From UHGV virus genome UHGV-0212259: 44,951 bases of DNA. One strand, 5' to 3'. The notes beneath the pieces were generated by a model. That model ran no database searches. It was not told the origin of the DNA and saw only the letters and a list, made by a program, of their open reading frames with translations. Every line of letters starts with the position of its first letter. The stretch's first letter is position 1. Source of the stretch: a virus. A program made the translations under genes and the position numbers. Positions 4,278-42,895 of this stretch are shown in pieces.

Positions 4278-5321
4278 TTAATCCCCTTTCAGATAATCAG
4301 CAACACGTTTATCGAGTTCCGCCATCTGCTTAAGCGTGAGCGGATTCCCGAAACCATCTACAGATATTACGCGAAACTCTTCCGGCGATATACCGCTGTT
4401 ACGGAAAATCTTACCACGCACCGGGCCGAGCGCCTGGTCCTGAAACCACGCCGGTTGTTGTTTAAGGAACTCGTAGTAAGTGGTGTCTGCGCTTACCTGA
4501 GTGCCGCCGTCCGCGCCCTTAGCCGCACGTTTTGCGCCTTTATCCAGGAAGTCGAACTCGGAACTGATTACCGGGGCCGTGGTACTTCTGCATCCACAAT
4601 GGGCGGGGGGCATCGGCCCTTTACCGATTTCCCACGTCATCCCATCTCTGGCCTTGCAAACGGCTGAGGTCCTAGAATCAAGAGTAGACACCCACTCATA
4701 TTTCTCGATGATGTCGTCGTTCTGACGGTACGTCTCGTTGCGTGCTTCGTTGGACACGTGAGACAGCGCGGTGCGGATTACGGTAGCGGCGTTACGTTCA
4801 GAGATGTCCGCCAGCCCACCAGCGCCTACGACGTTCTTAACAATCTGCCGTGTGGTTTGGCCCTGTACGAAACCCATCTTAACGCCGGTGACCAGGCGCG
4901 CGACTTCGGTTTCGCCCCATCCAGACATCAGTTTAGTGAAATCAACAGGCTTGTCACTTAGCGATAAGGGCTGAAACTCGGCAGCGGCCCACACCTGTTC
5001 CGCGGTAGGTGTAACAAATTCCGCGTTAACGTTGGTGGTCAGTGCCTTTACGTTCCACTCCGCCTCATACGCCGCCAGTTCCTTAAGGTCTTCTGTCAGC
5101 TTTGTTTGCCAGTCACCTGTAAGCCCTGTCAGTGCTTCTTCGAGGTCGCGTAACAGTTTATTCAGTCGCGCAGTGCTTCGCCCGTCGTCGCCGAATAACA
5201 GCACCTGCCGTTTGATTTCGTCCCGCATCTCCTTAATAAACGGTGCGAGGTCTTTCACTTCACCGGATGCGGCGCGTTGTAGCCATATCTGGTGGCTGAT
5301 TAGGGATGTAAGTAAGCTCAT
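4278..5321 (-). CDS. Head morphogenesis / minor head protein
   Basis: About 347 aa directly downstream of portal on the same strand; start placed at ATG 5321 with AGGAGGG SD (track ORF extends to 5378); family assignment by position only. Confidence 0.5.
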   Translation of the reverse strand: MSLLTSLISHQIWLQRAASGEVKDLAPFIKEMRDEIKRQVLLFGDDGRSTARLNKLLRDLEEALTGLTGDWQTKLTEDLKELAAYEAEWNVKALTTNVNAEFVTPTAEQVWAAAEFQPLSLSDKPVDFTKLMSGWGETEVARLVTGVKMGFVQGQTTRQIVKNVVGAGGLADISERNAATVIRTALSHVSNEARNETYRQNDDIIEKYEWVSTLDSRTSAVCKARDGMTWEIGKGPMPPAHCGCRSTTAPVISSEFDFLDKGAKRAAKGADGGTQVSADTTYYEFLKQQPAWFQDQALGPVRGKIFRNSGISPEEFRVISVDGFGNPLTLKQMAELDKRVADYLKGD

Positions 5322-12499: not shown

Positions 12500-12940
12500 T
12501 TATCCTAATAGTTGTTTGGTAATAATCTTGCCGCCGGTGTTAGTGTCGAACTTCGATGCAACGGCTACGCCGCCATGCGCCGAATATTCGCACTCCATAG
12601 CGGCTAATGCATATGGCGAGCCAGACCCCACGGCGGCGTACACATCAGCAACCGGAATAACTGAACTAAGTGCACAATCCCATGATTTATAGAACGCGAC
12701 TTTGTACACCTTTTCTGTGTCTTTCACGAACACCAGGGCTTCGAAATCGAAGTCATAATGTCTTGCCTGAAGGATATACGGACAATCGATAAGCATAGTT
12801 CCGACTCCGGCATCACCAGCTACCCCGATAACATAGACATCACTCTCATATATCTTTGTGTCTGTGTTGTAACAGTTACTTCCGCACACAACACGGGTGT
12901 CACAGGCCATTGTCTTTCCGTCAAACGCGATTGTAGTCAT
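12500..12940 (-). CDS. HslV/proteasome-beta-like N-terminal-nucleophile hydrolase (putative threonine peptidase)
   Basis: 146 aa; begins MTTIAFDG (Thr directly after Met as in HslV); VIGVAGDAG and AVGSGSPYALAA segments resemble HslV GFAGG and GSGGPYA blocks; similarity judged from memory. Confidence 0.5.
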   Translation of the reverse strand: MTTIAFDGKTMACDTRVVCGSNCYNTDTKIYESDVYVIGVAGDAGVGTMLIDCPYILQARHYDFDFEALVFVKDTEKVYKVAFYKSWDCALSSVIPVADVYAAVGSGSPYALAAMECEYSAHGGVAVASKFDTNTGGKIITKQLLG

Positions 12941-13230
12941 TTATGTCTCCAGATGTATTGTCGTCTCTGCGGTTTCGTCGGAATATCTTCATACCCCAGC
13001 GATTTCCAGTAATTAAATAACCTATTAGCGATAGCTGCGCGTTCCTGTGTTTTGAACTCACCGAGATTCACGGCCTTCCCGTTCTGAAATCCACAGGCGC
13101 GGACCGCTTTGCGTCTGGCCTGAATCTCTGGGTACAGCGAGTTACGGCGGCGCTTATGTATTCTGGTGTTCGCTCTCGGTGACAGCGGCGCAAGGCCGCT
13201 TCGTTTCAGGATGTCAGTTGCAAGAGACAT
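12937..13230 (-). CDS. Small basic protein, possible AP2-like DNA-binding domain
   Basis: About 97 aa from ATG 13230; segment NGKAVNLGEFKTQERAAIANRLFNYWKSLGYE resembles the AP2-like C-terminal region of the two HNH endonucleases in this window. Confidence 0.3.
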   Translation of the reverse strand: MSLATDILKRSGLAPLSPRANTRIHKRRRNSLYPEIQARRKAVRACGFQNGKAVNLGEFKTQERAAIANRLFNYWKSLGYEDIPTKPQRRQYIWRHK

Positions 13231-20518: not shown

Positions 20519-21756
20519 TTTTAAAGGAACGCGGCGGCAATAACGATGTACACGCCTTACTGTCACCGTCGGGTGCTAAGAAGTGGCTAAGCTGCGCGGC
20601 ATCACTGGCCTGTGAAAAAGATATTCCTAACACGTCCGGTAAAGCCGCGGTATTAGGAACAGCTATGCACACCATAGCAGAGATGCACCTTAACCAGTAC
20701 ATCAAAGGCACTGCGTTGCCGTTAGAACGCGAGGTCGGTGCTTACGTGCTGGACGAGGGTAAAGGCCAGATTAAGGCGCTAATCAGTCCGATGAAAGGCG
20801 TGGTACTGATTACGGCGGACATGATTGAGCAGGTGCGCAAGTACACCGACTACTGCAAAGCGATTATCGACGTAGCGACTTACGCCAAGCTGGAAATGCG
20901 CGTCAATCTTACTGAAGTATTGCATCCGGGGTATGAAGGCGTTGAGACGTTCGGAACCGCTGACCTTGTTGCCGTTCAGGAACTGGCTAACACCGACGAG
21001 CGCATGCTAATCATCGGCGACCTGAAAACAGGACGGCATCGTGTCGAAGCGAAAGAAAACAAACAGCTTATGCTATACGCTCTCGGTGTTTATCGCCGCC
21101 TCAAGAGACGATATAACATCACAGTTGTTCGTCTGGTAATCTTCCAGCCGTACGCTGGTGGCGCGTCCGAGTGGGACATCTCGGTCGAAGGTCTGGAACT
21201 GTTTGCTAAGTTCGCACAGAAACGCGCGCTGTTAGCCCTTGATGCTTATTTCCGCGGCAAGAAGAACCTGAAAGCGTCGGACTTCAAACCATCGGTCGAT
21301 GGCTGTCAGTGGTGTCGGTTCTCTGAACAATGTGCCGCGCGTACAAAGACGGTTAATTCTGTACTGGCGGAAGAACTGGAGGACGACTTTGCGCTGGAAC
21401 TTACTCCGGAGCAACTCATCGCTGAGTATGAGAAGTTGCCGTTGTTGCGCCAGCACATCGACAAGGTCGAGAAAGCTATGGCCGCCGCGTTGCATTCTGG
21501 CAAGAAAGTACCGGGGTACAAGCTGGTTGAGGGTCGGCCGGGTAATCGCGCGTGGAAAGACGCAGAGAAAGTGGCCGAGAAATACGGCGGCAAGCTGACC
21601 AAAGAAGTGCTCATGACGCCGACCGAAGCGGTTAAAGTAATACCGGAAGAAGAACTGAAAGACTTCATTACCCGTAAACCAGGCGCGCCATGCGTCGCAA
21701 CGGCGGACGACAAACGTCCTGAGTGGAATCAGGTAACAGAGGAGGATTTGGAATGA
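20515..21756 (+). CDS. PD-(D/E)XK nuclease, Cas4/RecB-like (resembles DUF2800-type phage exonuclease)
   Basis: About 413 aa from ATG 20515; GTADLV...IIGDLKTGRH nuclease core; Cys cluster CQWCRFSEQC; C-terminal TEEDLE. Confidence 0.6.
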   Translation: MILKERGGNNDVHALLSPSGAKKWLSCAASLACEKDIPNTSGKAAVLGTAMHTIAEMHLNQYIKGTALPLEREVGAYVLDEGKGQIKALISPMKGVVLITADMIEQVRKYTDYCKAIIDVATYAKLEMRVNLTEVLHPGYEGVETFGTADLVAVQELANTDERMLIIGDLKTGRHRVEAKENKQLMLYALGVYRRLKRRYNITVVRLVIFQPYAGGASEWDISVEGLELFAKFAQKRALLALDAYFRGKKNLKASDFKPSVDGCQWCRFSEQCAARTKTVNSVLAEELEDDFALELTPEQLIAEYEKLPLLRQHIDKVEKAMAAALHSGKKVPGYKLVEGRPGNRAWKDAEKVAEKYGGKLTKEVLMTPTEAVKVIPEEELKDFITRKPGAPCVATADDKRPEWNQVTEEDLE

Positions 21757-22004
21757 TTCGTAAAATGTTCAGAGTAATTGGCGGTTTTGTGGCGTGTATT
21801 ATTTTCTGGGTTCTTATGTCGCCGCTAATGATACCAACATTTATCATAGCGTGCCTTACGATATGCCTAATGCGAACACGCGACATCGAAGCCATCCTGA
21901 ATGACAAATCGTGGAAGACACAGGCGTTACGTTTCATAAACAACATGAAATGGCCAAACAAGTATATTGAGATAGTTGAGAAAATAACTGGCTGGAAGGG
22001 TTGA
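21753..22004 (+). CDS. Small membrane protein (2 TM)
   Basis: 83 aa from ATG 21753 (ATGA overlap with upstream stop; GAGGAGGA SD); hydrophobic segments VIGGFVACIIFWVLM and IPTFIIACLTICLM. Confidence 0.45.
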   Translation: MIRKMFRVIGGFVACIIFWVLMSPLMIPTFIIACLTICLMRTRDIEAILNDKSWKTQALRFINNMKWPNKYIEIVEKITGWKG

Positions 22005-22029
22005 CACCTGAATAGTTAGCTATTATATT
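22001..22029 (+). promoter_or_regulatory. Sigma70-like promoter with operator in spacer (type B) upstream of SSB-like gene
   Basis: TTGACA (22001..22006), 17-nt spacer containing TGAATAGTTAGCTAT, TATATT (22024..22029). Confidence 0.55.
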
Positions 22030-22087
22030 TCTAATCACTGGCCGGGCAGCTCCCGGAGTAAACGAAACTGAAAAGCGAGAAATTAAG

Positions 22088-22714
22088 ATGGGACTGAAAT
22101 TAAATCTGCGTAAAGTAAACACTGCATGGGTTAACGTATTTGAACGCGAAAAAGACCGTGAAAACGATGATGGCTCAATCACCAAAGGCCAGTACAGTGC
22201 AACCATTATCCTGCCGTCGGACCATGCTCAAATCGATGCGCTCTACGATACCGTTTACGCTGTAGTCGAAGAAGCATTAGGCGCAGCCGCCACAGAGAAA
22301 TGGATGAAGTCCAACTACGGCGAAGGTAAGCACATGGATAAATGCGCGATTAAAGATATTGCAGAGCGCGACAATCCGTTTGAAGACTTCCCGGAAGGCT
22401 TCTACTTCAAAGCGAAGGCGCAGAAACAGCCGCTTATTGTAACCTCTAAAAAAGGCGAGACTCAGGTAGAGCAGGACTTCAATGTAGACGGCGAACAGAT
22501 TGAAGGTGAACAGGTTTACAGCGGCTGCGTTGCTAATGTAAGCGTTGAAATCTGGTTCAGCCAGAAATATAAAGTTCTCGGCGTTAACCTGCTGGCGATT
22601 AAATACGTCGGCGAAGGTAAAGCGTTCGGCGGTTCTAAAGTCGCTGCAAGCGTCGATGACCTGGAAGATGATGAAGAAGATGAAGCACCGCGCCGCGAAC
22701 GTCGTCGCCGCTAA
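22088..22714 (+). CDS. ssDNA-binding protein-like (resembles DUF2815-type phage SSB)
   Basis: 208 aa; acidic C-terminal tail DDLEDDEEDEAPRRERRRR; sits between Cas4-like nuclease and DNA polymerase. Confidence 0.5.
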   Translation: MGLKLNLRKVNTAWVNVFEREKDRENDDGSITKGQYSATIILPSDHAQIDALYDTVYAVVEEALGAAATEKWMKSNYGEGKHMDKCAIKDIAERDNPFEDFPEGFYFKAKAQKQPLIVTSKKGETQVEQDFNVDGEQIEGEQVYSGCVANVSVEIWFSQKYKVLGVNLLAIKYVGEGKAFGGSKVAASVDDLEDDEEDEAPRRERRRR

Positions 22715-22732
22715 TATCTGAATCAATTTAAC

Positions 22733-22757
22733 TAAGGCCCTTCATTGGGCCTTTTTA
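22733..22757 (+). terminator. Rho-independent terminator after SSB-like gene
   Basis: Hairpin AAGGCCC-ttcattg-GGCCTT followed by TTTTT. Confidence 0.55.
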
Positions 22758-22768
22758 CCGGAGTCAGA

Positions 22769-23242
22769 ATGGAACATATAAAAGATTTTCTAAGCTACGA
22801 CCGAGAGACAGGGGTATTCACGTGGGTACAGCCTACTTACCGTCGAGGGCGACCGGGAGACATCGCGGGGTGCATCAATAGTAGTGGATACTGGCGAATT
22901 CCGTACATGGGTCGATATTACATGGCGCACAGGCTAGCGTGGTTTTTCGAGTATGGTGAATGGCCCGAAGGCCCTCTTGACCATATAAACCGTGACAGGT
23001 TAGACAATAGGATTTCTAACCTAAGGAAAGCAACAACCGCTGATAATGTGCGAAACGCTAAAAATAAGGGAGCTAGAACAGGAGTTAAGGGAGTAGTTAA
23101 AAACGGCAACCGATTTTACGGGCGTGTGCATTTTAACTACAAAAGCTATAACGCCGGTAGCTACGGAACTCTTGAAGAAGCAGAAAGCGCTGTAAAGAAA
23201 TTAAGAGAAAAACTGCACAAGGAATTTTATTGCCATGACTAG
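22769..23242 (+). CDS. HNH homing endonuclease with AP2-like domain (copy 1)
   Basis: HRLAW...DHINRDRLDNRISNLR HNH core; paralogous to 26331..26828; free-standing, overlaps DNA polymerase start. Confidence 0.65.
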   Translation: MEHIKDFLSYDRETGVFTWVQPTYRRGRPGDIAGCINSSGYWRIPYMGRYYMAHRLAWFFEYGEWPEGPLDHINRDRLDNRISNLRKATTADNVRNAKNKGARTGVKGVVKNGNRFYGRVHFNYKSYNAGSYGTLEEAESAVKKLREKLHKEFYCHD

Positions 23243-25433
23243 TTTATTATACCTGGATACCGAGACGTTCTCTGGAGCGGACTTAAAGAAAGTCGGGTCG
23301 TATGCGTACGCGGAGCACCCAACGACAGAGGTTATAATTTGCACATATGCCGTTGATGATGGTCCTGTAGAAGTATGGGATTGCACTTCCGAACCAGTAA
23401 TGCCAATAAGCCTACGTGTTGCGCTCCGTAATGTTATGCGCGGACGTATGAAAATCGTGGGCCATAACTTTTTAATGTTCGACAGGCTCATCATGAAACA
23501 CTGCTGGGGCTTTGATATTCCGGTTAGCAACACCATCGATACGATGATTTGGGCGTTCCGCCACGCGTTGCCGGGTTCACTTGATGCGTTGTGCGAAGTG
23601 CTGGGCGTGTCTGCAGACAACGCGAAAGACAAACGCGGCAAGGCGCTGATTAAGCGTTTCTCTAAACCTACGCCGAAGAACTATAAAATCCGCCGTTACA
23701 CCGCAGAAACACATCCTGACGAGTGGGCGCTGTTCATCAAGTACGCCGTGAGCGACATCACCGCGATGCGTGAAGTCTTTCATAAGCTGCCGCGTTGGGG
23801 TAACTCCGAGTTCGAGGACCGTGTACTGGAACTTGACCAGTTAATCAATGACCGTGGGTTTAAGGTTGACGTTGCACTGGCGGAAGCCGCGATTGAAGCC
23901 GTGGAGAAGCACAAGGCACAGTTACAGGAAGAAGCCCAACGCAAATACGGCGGCTCGCTTACCGGTAAAGACTTTCTGCCGATTCTGCGTGAACTCGCCC
24001 CCGCGCACCGCATCCACAACGCGCAGAAGTCAACGCTTCATGACCTGCTGGCGGACGATGATTTACCTGACGACGCCCGCACGATTATCGAAATGCGCCT
24101 CGGGGCCGCGTCCACCGCATCAACGAAATATAACCCGCTGCTGTTAGGCCGCTCGTCGGACGACCGCCGTCGCGGTTGTTTACAGTATGGCGGGGCAAAA
24201 CGTACTCTGCGATGGGCGGGTAAAGGCTTCCAGCCGCAGAATCTCGCACGCGGGTACTATCACGATGATGAACTGGATAAAGGCATTTCAGCGTTACTTA
24301 AGGGCCGAGCGCATCGCCGTTTCGATGTGGCAAAACTGACGGCATCTACTGTGCGTAGCTGCATCATACCGGAAGAAGGGCATAAGTTTGTTGTTGCTGA
24401 CTACTCTAACGTTGAAGGTCGCGGGCTTGCGTGGCTGGCTGGGGAGGAAACCGCGCTTGATACGTTCCGCGCCGGGTTGGATATTTACTGTGTAACCGCG
24501 GGTAAGATGTTTGGCATGGACCCAGATGATATTAAGAAAAACTTCAAGGAAATCAGACAGATAGGCAAGGCTTGCGAGCTTGGCCTCGGCTATGAGGGGG
24601 GCGTCGGAGCGTTCGTTACGTTTGCTAAAAACTTAGGTCTTGACCTTATTGAGATGGCAAAAACAATGGACGGTACATTCCCGGACCACATATGGGCCGC
24701 TACCGCACGCGGGTACGAGTGGGCACGTATCCAGGAAGCAAAGCGGCCACCGCATCCAGGTGAAAAGGACGACAGACCATCGTATATCCTTGATAAGAAA
24801 GTGTGGCGTACCTGTGATGCTATCAAGCGCATGTGGCGCGAGTCACACCCGGAAACAGTAGCGTTCTGGCGCGACCTTAAAGACGGAATTTTAGCCGCTG
24901 TGCGCAATCCTGGTCGTGAATTTTGGGCGGGAGCACACTTGCGCAGGAATGGGGAAAGGGCTATCCGCATATGGCGTACTGTAGAATTTGATTCATCCGG
25001 CAGGAAGGTTCCTGGTTGGTGGTTATGCATGGAGTTGCCGTCGGGTCGCATCCTCTCGTATCCGGGAATCGGCGTTAGTGTGACAAAGGAAACAGACGAA
25101 GACGGACGGGTAAACACGAATGTGCGAATCAAGTATCAAGGCGAAAACCAGTTAACCCGCCAATGGACCACCCTGTACACACACGGCGGCAAGGCCTGCG
25201 AAAACATTGTTCAGGCGCTGTGCCGTGATTTACTTGCGTATGCGATGATTAACGTTGAGCTCGGCGGGTATCCTATCGTACTTTCGGTACACGATGAACT
25301 GGTATGTGAAACTCCAGATACGCCGGGTTACACGGTACATGATCTGGAAAAATTAATGTGCGCGTTGCCTGAGTGGGCAGAAGGCTTCCCTCTTGTGGCG
25401 GAAGGTGCGGAGATGAAGCGTTATGCTAAGTAA
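23235..25433 (+). CDS. DNA polymerase, family A, with 3'-5' exonuclease domain
   Basis: 732 aa; Exo I LYLDTETFS, Exo II VGHNFLMFD, Exo III YAVSDI; polymerase motif A VADYSNVEGRGLAW, motif B RQIGKACELGLGYEGG, motif C VHDELV. Confidence 0.9.
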   Translation: MTSLLYLDTETFSGADLKKVGSYAYAEHPTTEVIICTYAVDDGPVEVWDCTSEPVMPISLRVALRNVMRGRMKIVGHNFLMFDRLIMKHCWGFDIPVSNTIDTMIWAFRHALPGSLDALCEVLGVSADNAKDKRGKALIKRFSKPTPKNYKIRRYTAETHPDEWALFIKYAVSDITAMREVFHKLPRWGNSEFEDRVLELDQLINDRGFKVDVALAEAAIEAVEKHKAQLQEEAQRKYGGSLTGKDFLPILRELAPAHRIHNAQKSTLHDLLADDDLPDDARTIIEMRLGAASTASTKYNPLLLGRSSDDRRRGCLQYGGAKRTLRWAGKGFQPQNLARGYYHDDELDKGISALLKGRAHRRFDVAKLTASTVRSCIIPEEGHKFVVADYSNVEGRGLAWLAGEETALDTFRAGLDIYCVTAGKMFGMDPDDIKKNFKEIRQIGKACELGLGYEGGVGAFVTFAKNLGLDLIEMAKTMDGTFPDHIWAATARGYEWARIQEAKRPPHPGEKDDRPSYILDKKVWRTCDAIKRMWRESHPETVAFWRDLKDGILAAVRNPGREFWAGAHLRRNGERAIRIWRTVEFDSSGRKVPGWWLCMELPSGRILSYPGIGVSVTKETDEDGRVNTNVRIKYQGENQLTRQWTTLYTHGGKACENIVQALCRDLLAYAMINVELGGYPIVLSVHDELVCETPDTPGYTVHDLEKLMCALPEWAEGFPLVAEGAEMKRYAK

Positions 25434-25636: not shown

Positions 25637-25831
25637 ATGAGTAACAAGCCATTTAGTAAGAAACTAGCTGCGTTAGTGGATATGCCGGAATGGGAATTTA
25701 TCATGGTAATGGGTGATGGGTTCTTTAGTGACGTTTGTGCGGGGTGCACACACAAAGGTGTTTACTATTCGGAACACGACATCTATCAAGCGTACTTCCT
25801 GCGTAACCCGGATGCGGAGCCTTTGCTGTGA
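25637..25831 (+). CDS. Hypothetical protein
   Basis: About 64 aa from ATG 25637 (MSNKPFSKK...). Confidence 0.35.
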   Translation: MSNKPFSKKLAALVDMPEWEFIMVMGDGFFSDVCAGCTHKGVYYSEHDIYQAYFLRNPDAEPLL

Positions 25832-26112
25832 CCCCGGAAGGCAAGATTCAGAAATACGCAAAAGACCGATTCGAGGCCATTGGTGGCCTCGTTCGTAAAC
25901 TTTCCTACGAAGGACGTTCCGGTGCTCCTGACCTGCTGGTGATTCTCCCCGGCGGTATAATCTGGTTTGTCGAGGTGAAGAAAGACGAAAACACGAAGCC
26001 AGACCCGCACCAGTTACGTGAGCACGAGCGGATGCGTAAACGTGGTGCGAATGTTTTTGTCGTTGGTTCGTTTAAACAGGTTGACGACCTAATAGCGAAC
26101 TATTATAGTTAG
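25828..26112 (+). CDS. VRR-NUC domain nuclease
   Basis: 94 aa; PD-(D/E)XK signature GAPDLLVIL...WFVEVKK characteristic of VRR-NUC. Confidence 0.65.
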   Translation: MTPEGKIQKYAKDRFEAIGGLVRKLSYEGRSGAPDLLVILPGGIIWFVEVKKDENTKPDPHQLREHERMRKRGANVFVVGSFKQVDDLIANYYS

Positions 26113-26142: not shown

Positions 26143-26334
26143 ATGAAACACGAATATGACCGCAAACCAGCACGTGACATCGTACCTGGCGACATGATTT
26201 TCAACGTTAAGACCCGCCAGCCTGTTGCCGTTGATACGGTGTACGTCGAGTCGAACGGTAAACTGGTTATCGAAGACGTAACCGGTAACGTTACGGCGTT
26301 CGGGCGTAAAGAGTTAGTTCTGGTGGCGAAATGA
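26143..26334 (+). CDS. Hypothetical protein
   Basis: 63 aa ORF with AAGGAA SD. Confidence 0.4.
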   Translation: MKHEYDRKPARDIVPGDMIFNVKTRQPVAVDTVYVESNGKLVIEDVTGNVTAFGRKELVLVAK

Positions 26335-26828
26335 ACAAATTAACAAGAAGGCCTGATATTGAGGAGGCGAAACGTCTTCTTAACTATGACCCCGAAACAG
26401 GTATATTTACACGAAAAGTAAGCATTAAAGGGAGAAATGCGGGGGAGGTAGCCGGAGGGCCAAACGACAAAGGATACATAGTTATTACAGTCTCCGGTGT
26501 AAGAATAAAAGCCCACCATCTGGCATGGGCTTTCGTCTACGGAGAATATCATAACGGTGAGCTTGACCATAAAGACCGTAACAGGGCTAATAACGCCATA
26601 AATAATATAAGGCCAGCAGCCAGGAGCCAGCAGATTCAGAACCGAGACTGCTCATCACATAACACTAGCGGCGCGATAGGGGTTTACCAAATATCCTCTG
26701 GCAGGTGGCGCGCCAGAATAGGCGTCAATAACAAATACATCCACCTTGGCTATTTTGATACTATAGAAGAAGCGTCGCGCGTATACCAAAGAGCCGCGGA
26801 AATATACTTCGGGGAGTTCAAGGCATGA
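26331..26828 (+). CDS. HNH homing endonuclease with AP2-like domain (copy 2)
   Basis: YDPETGIFT...HHLAW...DHKDRNRANNAINNIR; paralog of 22769..23242; inserted between VRR-NUC region and SNF2 helicase. Confidence 0.65.
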   Translation: MNKLTRRPDIEEAKRLLNYDPETGIFTRKVSIKGRNAGEVAGGPNDKGYIVITVSGVRIKAHHLAWAFVYGEYHNGELDHKDRNRANNAINNIRPAARSQQIQNRDCSSHNTSGAIGVYQISSGRWRARIGVNNKYIHLGYFDTIEEASRVYQRAAEIYFGEFKA

Positions 26829-28249
26829 GTAAGTTTAGGCGCAGGGAATATCAGAAAATAATGACGTCGTTTATGCTACAGCACCCACGTTGCAATATCT
26901 GGTGCGGTATGGGCGGCGGCAAGACCTCGTCGACGATGTGGGTTCTCAATCGACTGTTCCGCAATGGCCAACTTAATGACGACGACCGAGTGTTAATCCT
27001 TGCCCCATTGCGAGTTGCATCTGGCACGTGGCCCGCAGAACAAACTAAGTGGGGTTTCCCGTGTCTTCGTGTCGTCGATGCAACTGGTTCGGAGAAGCGC
27101 CGCATCGCGGCGCTGGAGTCAGACGCTAACGTGGTGTGCACGAACTACGAAGTTATCGAGTGGCTCATTGACTACTACGGCAAAGACGACTGGCCTTTTA
27201 CGGTTATCGTCGCCGATGAAAGCACGAAGCTGAAATCGTTCCGCAGCCGTTCTGGCGGGAGCAAGCGGGCAAAGGCGCTCAGTAAAGTGGCGTTCGGCAA
27301 GGTTAAGCGGTTCATTAACCTGACAGGCACACCATCGCCAAATGGCCTCAAGGACTTGTGGGGGCAGAACTGGTTTATCGACGCTGGCGAGCGCCTCGGT
27401 TCTTCGTACACGGCATTCACCGACCGCTGGTTCAACTCGGTACAGAAAGGGAAATCCGCGATGGCGCGTGAGTATCATGCACGCCCCGGCGCAGATAATG
27501 AGATTCACCAGAAGATGAAAGACATCAGCCTTACGATTGACGCCGCTGAGTGGTTCGGATGTGAAGCGCCGATTATTGTACCGGTTGAAATAGACCTGCC
27601 GAAGAAGGCGCGTCAGGCGTACATCGATATGGAGGAGAAATTATTCGCGGAACTGGAGAGCGGAGAAGTCGAAGCGGCTAACGCTGCAGCTAAGACGTCG
27701 AAGTGCCTACAGATTGCATCCGGCGCTGTATATGTATCGGGGCCAGACGGAGAAGCAACGAAAGACTGGGAGAAAGTGCACGACACGAAACTGGATGCGC
27801 TGGAGTCCATCGTTGAGGAGTTACAGGGCGCTCCGTTACTGGTGGCTTATCAGTTCAAGCACGAACTGGAGCGCATCCTTAAGCGATTCCCTCAGGCGCA
27901 GGCGTTTGCCAAAGGTGCTAAGGGTAATAAGCAGATGGAAGCGTGGAACCGAGGTGAAATCGAAATCTTGTGCGTACACCCTGCGTCAGCCGGTCATGGT
28001 TTGAATTTACAGGACGGCGGTCACCATCTGGCGTTTATTTCACAAGGTTGGAACCTTGAGCACTATTTGCAGGTGGTTGAGCGTATAGGCCCTGTCCGCC
28101 AGAAGCAGGCAGGGCACGAGCGCCCGGTGTTCCTCTACCACATCGTTGCTAAAGACACTCTTGACGAGGTTGTCGCCGCTCGTACAGACGAGAAAAGGTC
28201 TGTGCAGGACGAACTACTTAATTATATGAAGAGAAGGAGTAAGAAATGA
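26825..28249 (+). CDS. SNF2/DEAD-like superfamily II helicase
   Basis: 474 aa; motif II VIVADESTKLKS; C-terminal helicase motifs (GHGLNLQ, QVVERIGPVRQ). Confidence 0.75.
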   Translation: MSKFRRREYQKIMTSFMLQHPRCNIWCGMGGGKTSSTMWVLNRLFRNGQLNDDDRVLILAPLRVASGTWPAEQTKWGFPCLRVVDATGSEKRRIAALESDANVVCTNYEVIEWLIDYYGKDDWPFTVIVADESTKLKSFRSRSGGSKRAKALSKVAFGKVKRFINLTGTPSPNGLKDLWGQNWFIDAGERLGSSYTAFTDRWFNSVQKGKSAMAREYHARPGADNEIHQKMKDISLTIDAAEWFGCEAPIIVPVEIDLPKKARQAYIDMEEKLFAELESGEVEAANAAAKTSKCLQIASGAVYVSGPDGEATKDWEKVHDTKLDALESIVEELQGAPLLVAYQFKHELERILKRFPQAQAFAKGAKGNKQMEAWNRGEIEILCVHPASAGHGLNLQDGGHHLAFISQGWNLEHYLQVVERIGPVRQKQAGHERPVFLYHIVAKDTLDEVVAARTDEKRSVQDELLNYMKRRSKK

Positions 28250-41302: not shown

Positions 41303-42482
41303 ATGCGTAACTAATACGTTGAATTACGATAGACGACTGATACTGGTTGCCGGTAGCCTGGCCTTCAATGGACTGAGTGATTGACTCGGGTCCGCCAATC
41401 TCTGGTGTGACCGCCGTAAGCTCTGCGCGTTTTAAACTGAAAGACATAGCCCCGTTTACCCCCGCCAGAATAGAGTTAATCTCTACCTGCTGCTCGTTGA
41501 TAAACTTCTGAATCATCGCCATGTCGTACAGCTTGCCGGAGATGGAGAAGGTGTTAGCTGCGCGACCACGTTCCACGAACGCAACGCTACTGTTGCCGAG
41601 TTCAAACTGAGCAGATGCGCCGTTGTCGTTGGTGATGGTCAGAGTATCGCAACGCAACGGCGTAGAACCGTCGAACACGGACACATCTACAGAAGAGAAC
41701 GGCTCGTCACCAAACGTAACAGAGGAGAAATTAGAACCGGTCGGCGGCGTAGTGAGAATCTCCTGACTGCGACCGATGAATGGGAAGCTGCCAGTTACCA
41801 TCGCGTTAACAGCCTGTTCGATGGTAAAACCAGAAACTTCCACGCCTTTGGTTAACGTGTACGCGTCAGTACCGCCGCACTGGCCTTTGTACCAGGTAAG
41901 GATAGAGAACGTCTTACACGTCTTACACGTGTTACCGGTTTCCAGCGTGTCGCCGGTTTTAGCCTTACTAGTTTTTGTCTCGGTGGTCAGGGTGTGTTGG
42001 ATGCCCGCACCAGTAACAACCTTAGCCTTTACTGCAGTAACAATAAATGGTTTTGCGTTATCGCCTGTTAAATCGGTAAATGCAATCAGGTCGCCTACCC
42101 CAACTCCGTCAGCGATAAAACTGCCGGTAGCGCGTGTGAACGTCTTGCCCGCGGGTGCGACGGTAATCGACAGACTGGACAGGGAAACACCGGATTGCCA
42201 CGTAGAGCCTAAAGCACCAGCTAGCCAGTCATCCTGGCTTTTCGAGCTAAGCTCGATCGCGTATTCACCGCTAACCTGTTTGTTACCGGTGCGGATGGAT
42301 GTAGTTTCACGGCTGCCGTCCAGTTCGTTGGAAGTCAGCGCATCGCGGGTTACGGCAGGAACGCCACCAGTGTTACGCAACGGAGACCAGACCGGGTTAC
42401 TTGGTGTTACGCCCGGGGTCACTTCTGCCACATAGAATTGCGCGGTATTCGCGCCCTTAAAAGGAGTTGTAGCCATATTCAC
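41301..42482 (-). CDS. Major tail (tube) protein
   Basis: 393 aa immediately upstream (in transcription order) of G/T chaperones and tape measure, interrupted only by the plus-strand cassette. Confidence 0.6.
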   Translation of the reverse strand: MNMATTPFKGANTAQFYVAEVTPGVTPSNPVWSPLRNTGGVPAVTRDALTSNELDGSRETTSIRTGNKQVSGEYAIELSSKSQDDWLAGALGSTWQSGVSLSSLSITVAPAGKTFTRATGSFIADGVGVGDLIAFTDLTGDNAKPFIVTAVKAKVVTGAGIQHTLTTETKTSKAKTGDTLETGNTCKTCKTFSILTWYKGQCGGTDAYTLTKGVEVSGFTIEQAVNAMVTGSFPFIGRSQEILTTPPTGSNFSSVTFGDEPFSSVDVSVFDGSTPLRCDTLTITNDNGASAQFELGNSSVAFVERGRAANTFSISGKLYDMAMIQKFINEQQVEINSILAGVNGAMSFSLKRAELTAVTPEIGGPESITQSIEGQATGNQYQSSIVIQRISYA

Positions 42483-42895
42483 AGCCTCTTGGTGAATGCA
42501 ATAAAGTTAATTGACAATGGTCGTTTGGCCCATCCGTTTTCTACAATCAGCGGCCCCAGGCTAACCGATTGAACCTCGGCGCAGATGTCGTTACGTGAAA
42601 ATGACTTACCTGCTTTAAACGCTGTGTTAAGTAAGTCTGCCATTTTATTGATTGGCGCGCTACCTTTCACCGATGCGTAGTTAATGTCTACCTGATAAAC
42701 ACCGGCGCGTTGCTCGGTGAAGAACAAATCGGCCTGTTCCGTATCGGCAAGTAACATGTAACTCGCCAGATAGGGCGTATCGGTTGACGTCGGTGCGTCG
42801 ATGTTTTCAAGCGCGACATTGATGCCGTTGGCAGTTCCGAAGGCTACCAGCGGCACGTCAAACGCTTTTGTTAAGTCCTCAAAGTAGCCCATCAT
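42479..42895 (-). CDS. Head-tail connector / tail terminator-type protein
   Basis: 138 aa, overlapping start/stop with neighbours. Confidence 0.4.
   Translation of the reverse strand: MMGYFEDLTKAFDVPLVAFGTANGINVALENIDAPTSTDTPYLASYMLLADTEQADLFFTEQRAGVYQVDINYASVKGSAPINKMADLLNTAFKAGKSFSRNDICAEVQSVSLGPLIVENGWAKRPLSINFIAFTKRL

Follow-up and report, generated by a model that had tools for sequence, protein, structure and literature searches.

Two putative AP2-HNH homing endonuclease genes and a stand-alone AP2-like protein in a Kagunavirus-like coliphage genome

Described HNH homing endonucleases and the phage genome under study

I-HmuI of Bacillus phage SPO1 (PDB 1U3E), the type member of HNH_3, is the product of a gene inside a group I intron; its C-terminal domain is of the helix-turn-helix type, and it nicks a single DNA strand. 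Its catalytic residues are D74, H75 and N96 (PMC12724721). The I-HmuI-like HNH genes of lactococcal Skunavirus phages group according to where they are inserted, and they bring about marker exclusion (PMC12724721). AP2-HNH homing endonucleases form a family known from phages, cyanobacteria and ciliates (Magnani et al. 2004, cited through PMC10448857). The Vibrio phage ICP1 has 'IPA-HNH' genes, and nuclease genes were found there at the boundaries of inter-phage exchange (PMC10448857). SegG and MobE of phage T4 are intergenic; where a genome does not have them they cleave the adjacent gene, and they are mobilised together with flanking markers (PMC2790892; PMC10448857). For the AP2-HNH class, a literature search that was not systematic turned up neither a mapped target site nor a solved structure.

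In this study, we analysed the phage genome UHGV-0212259, the whole 44,951-bp stretch of which is called the window below. Two of its genes, HNH1 and HNH2, encode proteins that align to I-HmuI; unlike I-HmuI, they are free-standing and intergenic, carry an AP2 domain instead of the helix-turn-helix domain and, in the case of HNH2, have Gln at the position of N96. Their domain order, HNH N-terminal and AP2 C-terminal, is that of the AP2-HNH family as cited in PMC10448857. Like the ICP1 nuclease genes they lie at boundaries of inter-phage exchange, but they are canonical HNH_3 proteins whereas the ICP1 HNH domains are too divergent for Pfam HNH_3 (PMC10448857), and they occupy other insertion slots, in Guernseyvirinae. 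They share with the Skunavirus genes the free-standing state, the variable number, the location in a siphophage replication module, the correspondence of phylogenetic group and insertion place, and the D74/H75/N96-type residues (PMC12724721). The phage group and host differ, however, AP2 is unmentioned in the text of PMC12724721, and marker exclusion was shown by experiment in those phages. SegG differs from both proteins in being a GIY-YIG enzyme and MobE in being an HNH enzyme without AP2, and the cleavage sites of SegG and MobE have been mapped.

UHGV-0212259 is a Kagunavirus-like coliphage. The 7.5 kb around the HNH genes matched 469 phage records, almost all of Salmonella and Escherichia siphophages, and the fetched relatives with full taxonomy were Guernseyvirinae (Kagunavirus, Jerseyvirus). 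The nearest record was that of Escherichia phage CR01 (95.8% identity), followed by M01. Since complete genomes of relatives are 40-46 kb long, the window probably corresponds to an entire phage genome of this kind. We fetched 74 IMG/VR loci around the polymerase gene (fetched loci have numbers beginning with L below) and mapped the orthologues of HNH1 and HNH2 onto them. The records of CR01 (L001) and M01 (L089) contain many frameshifts; their polymerase gene is split into 3 to 6 CDSs, and HNH2 of CR01 (L001 4871-5367) has a 1-nt deletion inside a G-run. These frameshifts are most likely sequencing errors, and apparent pseudogenes in both records are not trustworthy.

We consider it likely, at a probability of about 0.8, that HNH1 and HNH2 each represent an independent, free-standing homing endonuclease gene of the family that joins an I-HmuI-like HNH_3 domain to a C-terminal AP2 domain, a reading drawn from sequence and structure comparisons. 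As such they are ordinary members of an established architecture, several GenBank relatives already annotate these genes as 'HNH homing endonuclease', and the understanding of homing endonucleases is unchanged. The additions to what is known are modest: a clean signature of recent gain, the replacement of Asn by Gln in the HNH2 clade, and the placing of the family of a small core protein, P3, in the AP2 fold.

Architecture and catalytic residues of HNH1 and HNH2

HNH1 (22769-23242, plus strand) encodes 157 amino acids and HNH2 (26331-26828, plus strand) 165 amino acids. The initial annotation had described these two reading frames as paralogous AP2-HNH homing endonucleases sharing several sequence blocks. 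Its coordinates are correct and the blocks are present (YDRETGVFT/YDPETGIFT, AHRLAW/AHHLAW and DHINRDR/DHKDRNR). The similarity also survives formal alignment, being 37% identity over 156 residues, end to end (BLASTP, E 2e-19). The ATG at 22769 was taken as the start of HNH1; it is preceded by GGAG 5 nt upstream and is annotated as the start in four of five further HNH1-positive records, the KMB36 record having a shorter ORF. A TTG at 22745 was dropped as a start because it lies inside a terminator hairpin whereas the ATG has both the GGAG and the annotation support.

Both proteins were above the gathering cut-off of Pfam HNH_3 (PF13392, 24.8 bits), HNH1 with 56.5 bits and HNH2 with 33.9 bits (E 2e-8), and both matched phrog_99 'HNH endonuclease' (1e-58 and 3e-60, respectively). 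The N-terminal beta-sheet and the HNH core of HNH1 occupy residues 1-96, and an I-HmuI-like fold, that is, an N-terminal sheet followed by a beta-beta-alpha-metal core, was found. The AP2 domain lies at residues 108-153 of HNH1 and 116-158 of HNH2. Pfam AP2 (PF00847) gave 32.0 bits for HNH2, below its cut-off of 33.3, and no match for HNH1 or P3; it is listed in the precomputed annotation of cluster P0043 (98% identical). Tests more sensitive than Pfam did support the AP2 fold and homology: HNH2 matched the second AP2 domain of Arabidopsis WRI1 (E 2e-7), and the C-terminal domain of HNH1 superposes on solved AP2/ERF domains at 1.3-1.4 Å. Like the plant and apicomplexan AP2/ERF domains (AtERF1, 2GCC; TEM1, 7ET4; WRI1, 7WQ5), these domains consist of a three-stranded sheet and a helix, whereas AP2/ERF proteins, unlike HNH1, HNH2 and P3, are eukaryotic transcription factors. 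Sequence comparison in the case of HNH2 and structure comparison in that of HNH1 thus bore out the AP2-HNH architecture that had been claimed; in both proteins an I-HmuI-like N-terminal sheet is followed by the HNH core and, after a linker, by the AP2 domain.

The word paralogous is acceptable in a loose sense, given 37% identity, but not in the sense of a duplication. At least 12 lineages of the AP2-HNH family are present in related phages, with mutual identities of 28-48%. In this identity matrix HNH1 and HNH2 are not each other's closest relatives, which indicates independent invaders and rules out a recent duplication as their source. A profile search in all six frames found no third HNH copy in the window; a weak match at 42225-42569 (E 0.13) was treated as due to chance.

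Small HNH proteins of phages also include packaging-associated enzymes that assist the terminase in cutting concatemers (HK97 gp74-type or GVE2-type). Small size and an HNH domain in a phage are all that HNH1 and HNH2 have in common with them, and such a role is extremely improbable: the family is I-HmuI-like HNH_3 with AP2 and not the packaging type, the two genes lie in the replication module away from the terminase genes, most relatives lack them, and no fixed location beside terminase or portal genes was found.

The catalytic residues bear on whether the two proteins are active. In an alignment of 46 homologues, D79, H80, N88, R94 and N104 (HNH2 numbering) were invariant. The core residues of HNH1 are D71, H72, N80, N84, N93 and N96, among which D71, H72, N80 and N93 correspond to D74, H75, N83 and N96 of I-HmuI, all kept. 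Those of HNH2 are D79, H80, N88, N92, Q101 and N104; D79, H80 and N88 are kept, Gln101 replaces Asn96 of I-HmuI, and the invariant N104 follows three residues on. Of the 46 homologues, 37 have Asn and 9 have Gln in the column of Asn96. Loss of catalytic residues had been named as grounds for giving up the initial annotation; HNH1 shows none, and HNH2 shows a single conservative deviation, Gln101 in place of the metal-binding Asn. Because Gln101 occupies a metal-ligand position of I-HmuI, activity of HNH2 is less certain. However, even HNH2 orthologues of only 62-68% identity still have Gln101, which marks it as a variant that is maintained and not as a sign of decay. In the HNH2 clade the HNH metal site may exist as an active 'H-N-Q' variant, a suggestion that we regard as tentative.

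The ratio dN/dS was 0.02-0.04 for HNH1 and, for pairs with enough synonymous change, 0.06-0.17 for HNH2; such values indicate that both proteins are maintained by selection. Synonymous divergence between HNH1 copies reaches 0.6, so HNH1 is an old resident of this phage group and not only a recent invader.

It could be argued that HNH1 and HNH2 are relics that have lost catalysis or homing and that, as passive cargo, they move only through general homologous recombination, a frequent event at the module boundaries of these phages. Gln101 at the canonical metal-binding position of HNH2 would fit such an idea, as would the frameshifted copies in L004, L061 and CR01. Nevertheless, the D-H pair and the two Asn residues are invariant, the low dN/dS values and the conservation of Gln101 in distant orthologues point the other way, and sequencing errors probably account for some of the frameshifts, since the polymerase gene is also broken in CR01 and M01. 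Taken with the distribution of the genes, to which we return below, these data make relics rather unlikely, and maintained homing endonucleases are the preferred reading.

A different lineage of AP2-HNH proteins, encoded upstream of the SSB region (L008 2183-2680, L012 253-750 and L056 2430-2927), shows RH where the DH dyad is expected, and its Asn pair is missing (IRHKNKDR...RRGSIAHGT). From its sequence, this lineage may be a catalytically inactive derivative that has retained the AP2 domain.

Insertion slots, exchanged tracts and linked alleles

The initial annotation had also proposed that the two genes are mobile elements at recombination-active junctions, and had suggested a survey of presence and absence among relatives. 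HNH1 DNA was found in 6 and HNH2 DNA in 42 of ~470 related Guernseyvirinae records, counts that contain duplicate RefSeq/GenBank entries; 36 of the HNH2 matches cover at least 80% of the gene. In the 77 fetched loci, an HNH1 orthologue, where there is one, always lies immediately upstream of the polymerase gene, and an HNH2 orthologue always immediately upstream of the helicase gene. This also applies to distant copies, in phages whose polymerase or helicase is 64-72% identical to that of the window: L076 has an HNH1 copy of 68% identity in the usual slot next to a polymerase of 64% identity, and L054 and L075 have HNH2 copies of 62% identity in the usual slot next to a helicase of 71% identity. 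Further lineages of the family fill other slots of the replication module, namely after the helicase gene, after the polymerase gene and upstream of the SSB gene. Both genes are therefore polymorphic for presence at a fixed site, with clean empty sites.

The upstream boundary of the HNH1 cassette is an invariant hairpin, AAGGCCC-TTCATT-GGGCCTT followed by a T-run (22734-22758, plus strand), located 3' of the gene for a Gp2.5-like SSB and annotated as a terminator in the fBC-Eco01 record. This boundary was recognized from the sequence, the alignment and the ends of the matching segments; similarity to the window stops at 22758 in CR01 and at 22756 in M01. The empty slot 1 reads ...GGGCCTTTTTAC-TAAGGGTC(G/A)AAAATAAT-ATG, where ATG is the start of the polymerase gene, and the occupied slot reads ...GGGCCTTTTTAC-CGGAGTCAGA-ATG(HNH1)...CATGACTAG. 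The DNA polymerase I gene (23235-25433, plus strand), the putative target of HNH1, starts 8 nt before the end of HNH1 and overlaps its stop. Slot 2 lies between a 63-aa ORF (phrog_4879; 26143-26334, plus strand), the stop of which overlaps the HNH2 start, and the DNA helicase gene (phrog_62; 26825-28249, plus strand), the putative target of HNH2, the start of which overlaps the HNH2 stop; the overlap is ATGA at either end. The genes on either side of slot 2 are separated by 2 nt in fBC-Eco01.

Both slots receive other genes as well. In relatives, slot 2 is a hot spot that is empty or contains HNH2, another HNH lineage, a Dcm-type C5 methyltransferase gene or a second C5-methyltransferase-like gene of ~225 aa (L003 4959-5888, L004 8096-8892, L007 8350-9026 and L005 5819-6313). 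In slot 1 (22759-23234), small Cys-rich ORFs replace HNH1 in some relatives, with 92 aa in Golestan (L003 1723-2001) and 55 aa in L008 (~4834-5000). In Salmonella phage fmb-p1 (L088 1501-1605), the first 35 codons of HNH2 alone are followed by unrelated DNA, with no helicase gene downstream on the same strand; a rearrangement or an error of assembly or annotation is the probable cause.

Unrelated genes in the same slots, including the two methyltransferase types and the small ORFs, indicate general hot spots of exchange, which is what one would expect if the HNH genes were passive relics. That each lineage keeps its own slot even in distantly related phages argues against this.

Another interpretation is that the nucleases serve the phage, either as weapons against co-infecting relatives by way of marker exclusion, with or without copying of their own genes, or as helpers in replication or recombination. 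Their long persistence under purifying selection, their position in the replication module near the polymerase, helicase and VRR-NUC genes, and the documented marker exclusion by I-HmuI-like HNH enzymes in Skunavirus (PMC12724721) are in agreement with it. However, most related phages have neither gene, so an essential role is impossible, and marker exclusion and homing come about by one and the same molecular event, the difference being more one of emphasis than of mechanism. A primary function of this kind is quite improbable, and we continue with homing as the preferred explanation. The VRR-NUC-type gene, which encodes a nuclease resembling Holliday junction resolvases (phrog_93/phrog_5702; 25828-26112, plus strand), lies between the two HNH genes and could take part in repairing HNH-induced breaks.

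The comparison of the window with its nearest relatives delimits the DNA that came with HNH1. Between the window and CR01, the 1338 bp at 21421-22758 differ by 2 mismatches, the 488 bp at 22759-23246, which hold HNH1, are missing from CR01, the 216 bp at 23258-23473 and the 220 bp at 23498-23717 have 80 and 23 mismatches, respectively (103 in total over 23258-23717), and the 878 bp at 23718-24595 have none. The recently exchanged tract of ~960 bp thus consists of HNH1 and the first ~480 bp of the polymerase gene, between flanks nearly identical to CR01. M01 gave the same mismatch pattern as CR01. Because the slot is empty in CR01 and M01, the two nearest relatives, a gain in the lineage of the window is, by parsimony, most likely.

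The DNA exchanged with HNH1 includes a distinct polymerase allele (YLDTETFS...GHNFLMFDR; 23235-23717, plus strand), recognized by its mismatches to CR01 and by linkage. Two main alleles, only ~67% identical, were seen for the first 85 residues of the polymerase, a segment that includes the beginning of the exonuclease domain. Allele A (95-100% identity) is found in all 10 close HNH1-positive genomes and HNH1 in none of the 34 genomes with allele C, counts that are phylogenetically non-independent. Four HNH1-free genomes have an allele that is a sister to the linked one (91-93% identity). In all identity profiles the HNH1-linked tract stops near 23500-23700. An attempt to read the target site from the sequence was given up, as the empty site TAAGGGTC(G/A)AAAATAAT is identical in HNH-free genomes on both polymerase allele backgrounds.

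As judged from these alignments, the ~960-bp tract is the signature that homing with co-conversion would leave. Plain homologous recombination between co-infecting phages, with no cut, could also produce an exchange of this length. The asymmetric co-converted tract of ~480 bp fits the T4 model of SegG and MobE. It is one-sided, with none upstream and ~480 bp downstream, which suggests a cut inside the 5' region of the polymerase gene.

The linkage of HNH2 to its neighbour is a shorter and weaker signal than that of HNH1, and the 5' region of the helicase gene varies throughout the genomes. Comparison of the loci revealed a helicase 5' variant in the first ~50 nt of the gene (26825-26875, plus strand), AGGCGCAGGGAATAYCAGAAAATAATGACGTCGTTTATG, encoding MSKFRRREYQKIM. 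Its ~10 differences include amino-acid replacements (MSKFRRREYQKIM versus MSKF(Q/I)RREYQKLM). The full variant is present in 7 of 7 close HNH2-positive loci and in 0 of 44 HNH2-free loci, figures to which the same phylogenetic non-independence applies; two HNH2-free recombinants, L034 and L071, have only its 3' part. Among the fetched loci we found no near-identical pair with and without HNH2 of the kind that the window and CR01 form for HNH1. Linkage to a flanking allele, as co-conversion would create it, was nevertheless seen for both genes. Together with the presence/absence polymorphism and the ~960-bp tract relative to CR01 and M01, it upholds the proposal of mobility at recombination junctions.

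On these grounds, the following mechanism may be proposed. Each HNH protein would act as a monomer consisting of an N-terminal beta-sheet region that binds DNA, a beta-beta-alpha-metal nuclease core and an AP2 domain which, on a flexible linker, would provide sequence-specific DNA binding. In the core, the Asp-His pair would include the general base, and the Asn residues would serve structure and metal binding. During co-infection, the enzyme would cut or nick the DNA of an endonuclease-free relative near the empty slot, HNH1 at the SSB/polymerase junction or the 5' end of the polymerase gene and HNH2 at the 5' end of the helicase gene. Recombinational repair templated by the carrier genome would then copy in the endonuclease gene and adjacent sequence (co-conversion), and the carrier genome itself would be protected by the insertion or by the linked sequence differences. 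For cleavage activity, target site, the choice between a nick and a double-strand break, and direction of transfer, we infer this mechanism from the precedents of I-HmuI, SegG and MobE. Since I-HmuI is a nickase, nicking is a real possibility for HNH1 and HNH2.

HNH1 and HNH2 mark points at which this phage group swaps DNA, namely the starts of the polymerase and helicase genes. These points are relevant to phage taxonomy, to the reading of mosaic genomes and to the engineering of therapeutic Kagunavirus phages. The window and CR01 form a ready natural experiment on AP2-HNH homing and co-conversion, and the defined empty-site and occupied-site alleles provide substrates for such an experiment.

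In-frame insertions were also observed in the two neighbouring genes of relatives. A LAGLIDADG intein is present in the Walker A motif of the helicase (GSGK|C...THN|T) in L016 (7940-10405), L035, L044, L062 and L063; its site corresponds to ~26923 of the window, in the P-loop, ~100 nt downstream of the HNH2 slot, and the window lacks it. Among ~55 loci, 7 have HNH2, 5 have the helicase intein and none has both; as the expected overlap is only ~0.6, these figures are too low for mutual exclusion to be claimed. An insertion of ~294 aa with intein hallmarks (GKA|C...HN|C) is found in the polymerase in L055 (6347-7230), L056-L063, L065, L067 and L068; its site corresponds to residue ~447 of the polymerase of the window (~24575), which has no insertion there.

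The stand-alone AP2-like protein P3

P3 (12937-13230, minus strand) is a core protein of 97 aa that the initial annotation had compared with the C-terminus of the endonucleases and explained as either a decayed endonuclease or a domesticated DNA-binding protein. In pairwise comparison, the resemblance is weak: P3 matched HNH2 over a stretch of 17 aa (E 0.011) and gave nothing significant with HNH1. With an AP2-only profile searched in six frames, P3 was the best match in the window after the two HNH genes (E 0.015). Family comparison gave a clearer result. A library-wide profile search placed 63 clusters at 50% identity, mostly of 90-140 aa, in the P3 family, and the alignment of 57 members matched the AP2 part of the HNH family with an hhalign probability of 96.9% (E 1.8e-10, 48 columns). 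AP2 was the sole Pfam family matched by members of the P3 family, 13 of which matched it (best E 1e-5), and the family profile found the solved AP2 domains of WRI1 (1.3e-5) and TEM1 (5e-4).

In the window, the AP2-like part of P3, comprising strands 2-3 and the helix, lies at residues ~40-72 (13015-13113, minus strand) by the family alignment. Unlike AP2/ERF domains, and relative to its own family, P3 of Kagunavirus has lost the first AP2 strand (GV...W) with the conserved Trp. Orthologues in Jerseyvirus, Cornellvirus, phiEap-2 and Jilinvirus ep3 have the complete GV...W.A...LG.F.T..RA..A signature. Both termini of P3 are strongly conserved, carrying motifs that AP2/ERF domains do not have, MSLATDIL at the N-terminus and DIPxKP at the C-terminus.

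A short beta-hairpin with a helix is a small element, and the likeness to AP2 might be a chance match. This is very unlikely in view of the 48 columns aligned at 96.9% with 57 members, the restriction of Pfam matches to AP2, the detection of the WRI1 and TEM1 domains, and the full signature in orthologues of sister genera. The AP2-like assignment of P3 thus stands, with family profiles as its support.

A tblastn search matched P3 in 495 phage records, as expected of a gene that is core to Guernseyvirinae, and P3 shows no trace of an HNH domain. Its core-gene distribution, its own conserved termini and the lack of any HNH trace argue against a decayed endonuclease, and this half of the earlier explanation was rejected, whereas a domesticated DNA-binding protein would fit. 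P3 belongs to neither mobile element. Profile comparison shows it to be a conserved AP2-like protein that stands alone and most likely acts as a DNA-binding factor, and this assignment offers DNA binding as a lead to function for two PHROG families labelled 'unknown'. A more tentative idea, which we consider possible though on balance doubtful, is that the P3 family arose by domestication of the DNA-binding module of a homing endonuclease. If so, a stand-alone AP2 domain with its own MSLATDIL and DIPxKP termini would have become a phage regulator or an origin-binding protein, and the Kagunavirus branch would be further reshaping the AP2 domain through deletion of its first strand. Adjoining the P3 gene downstream, at 12500-12940 on the minus strand, there is a gene for an HslV-family peptidase-like protein (phrog_1040), which is unusual in a small siphophage.
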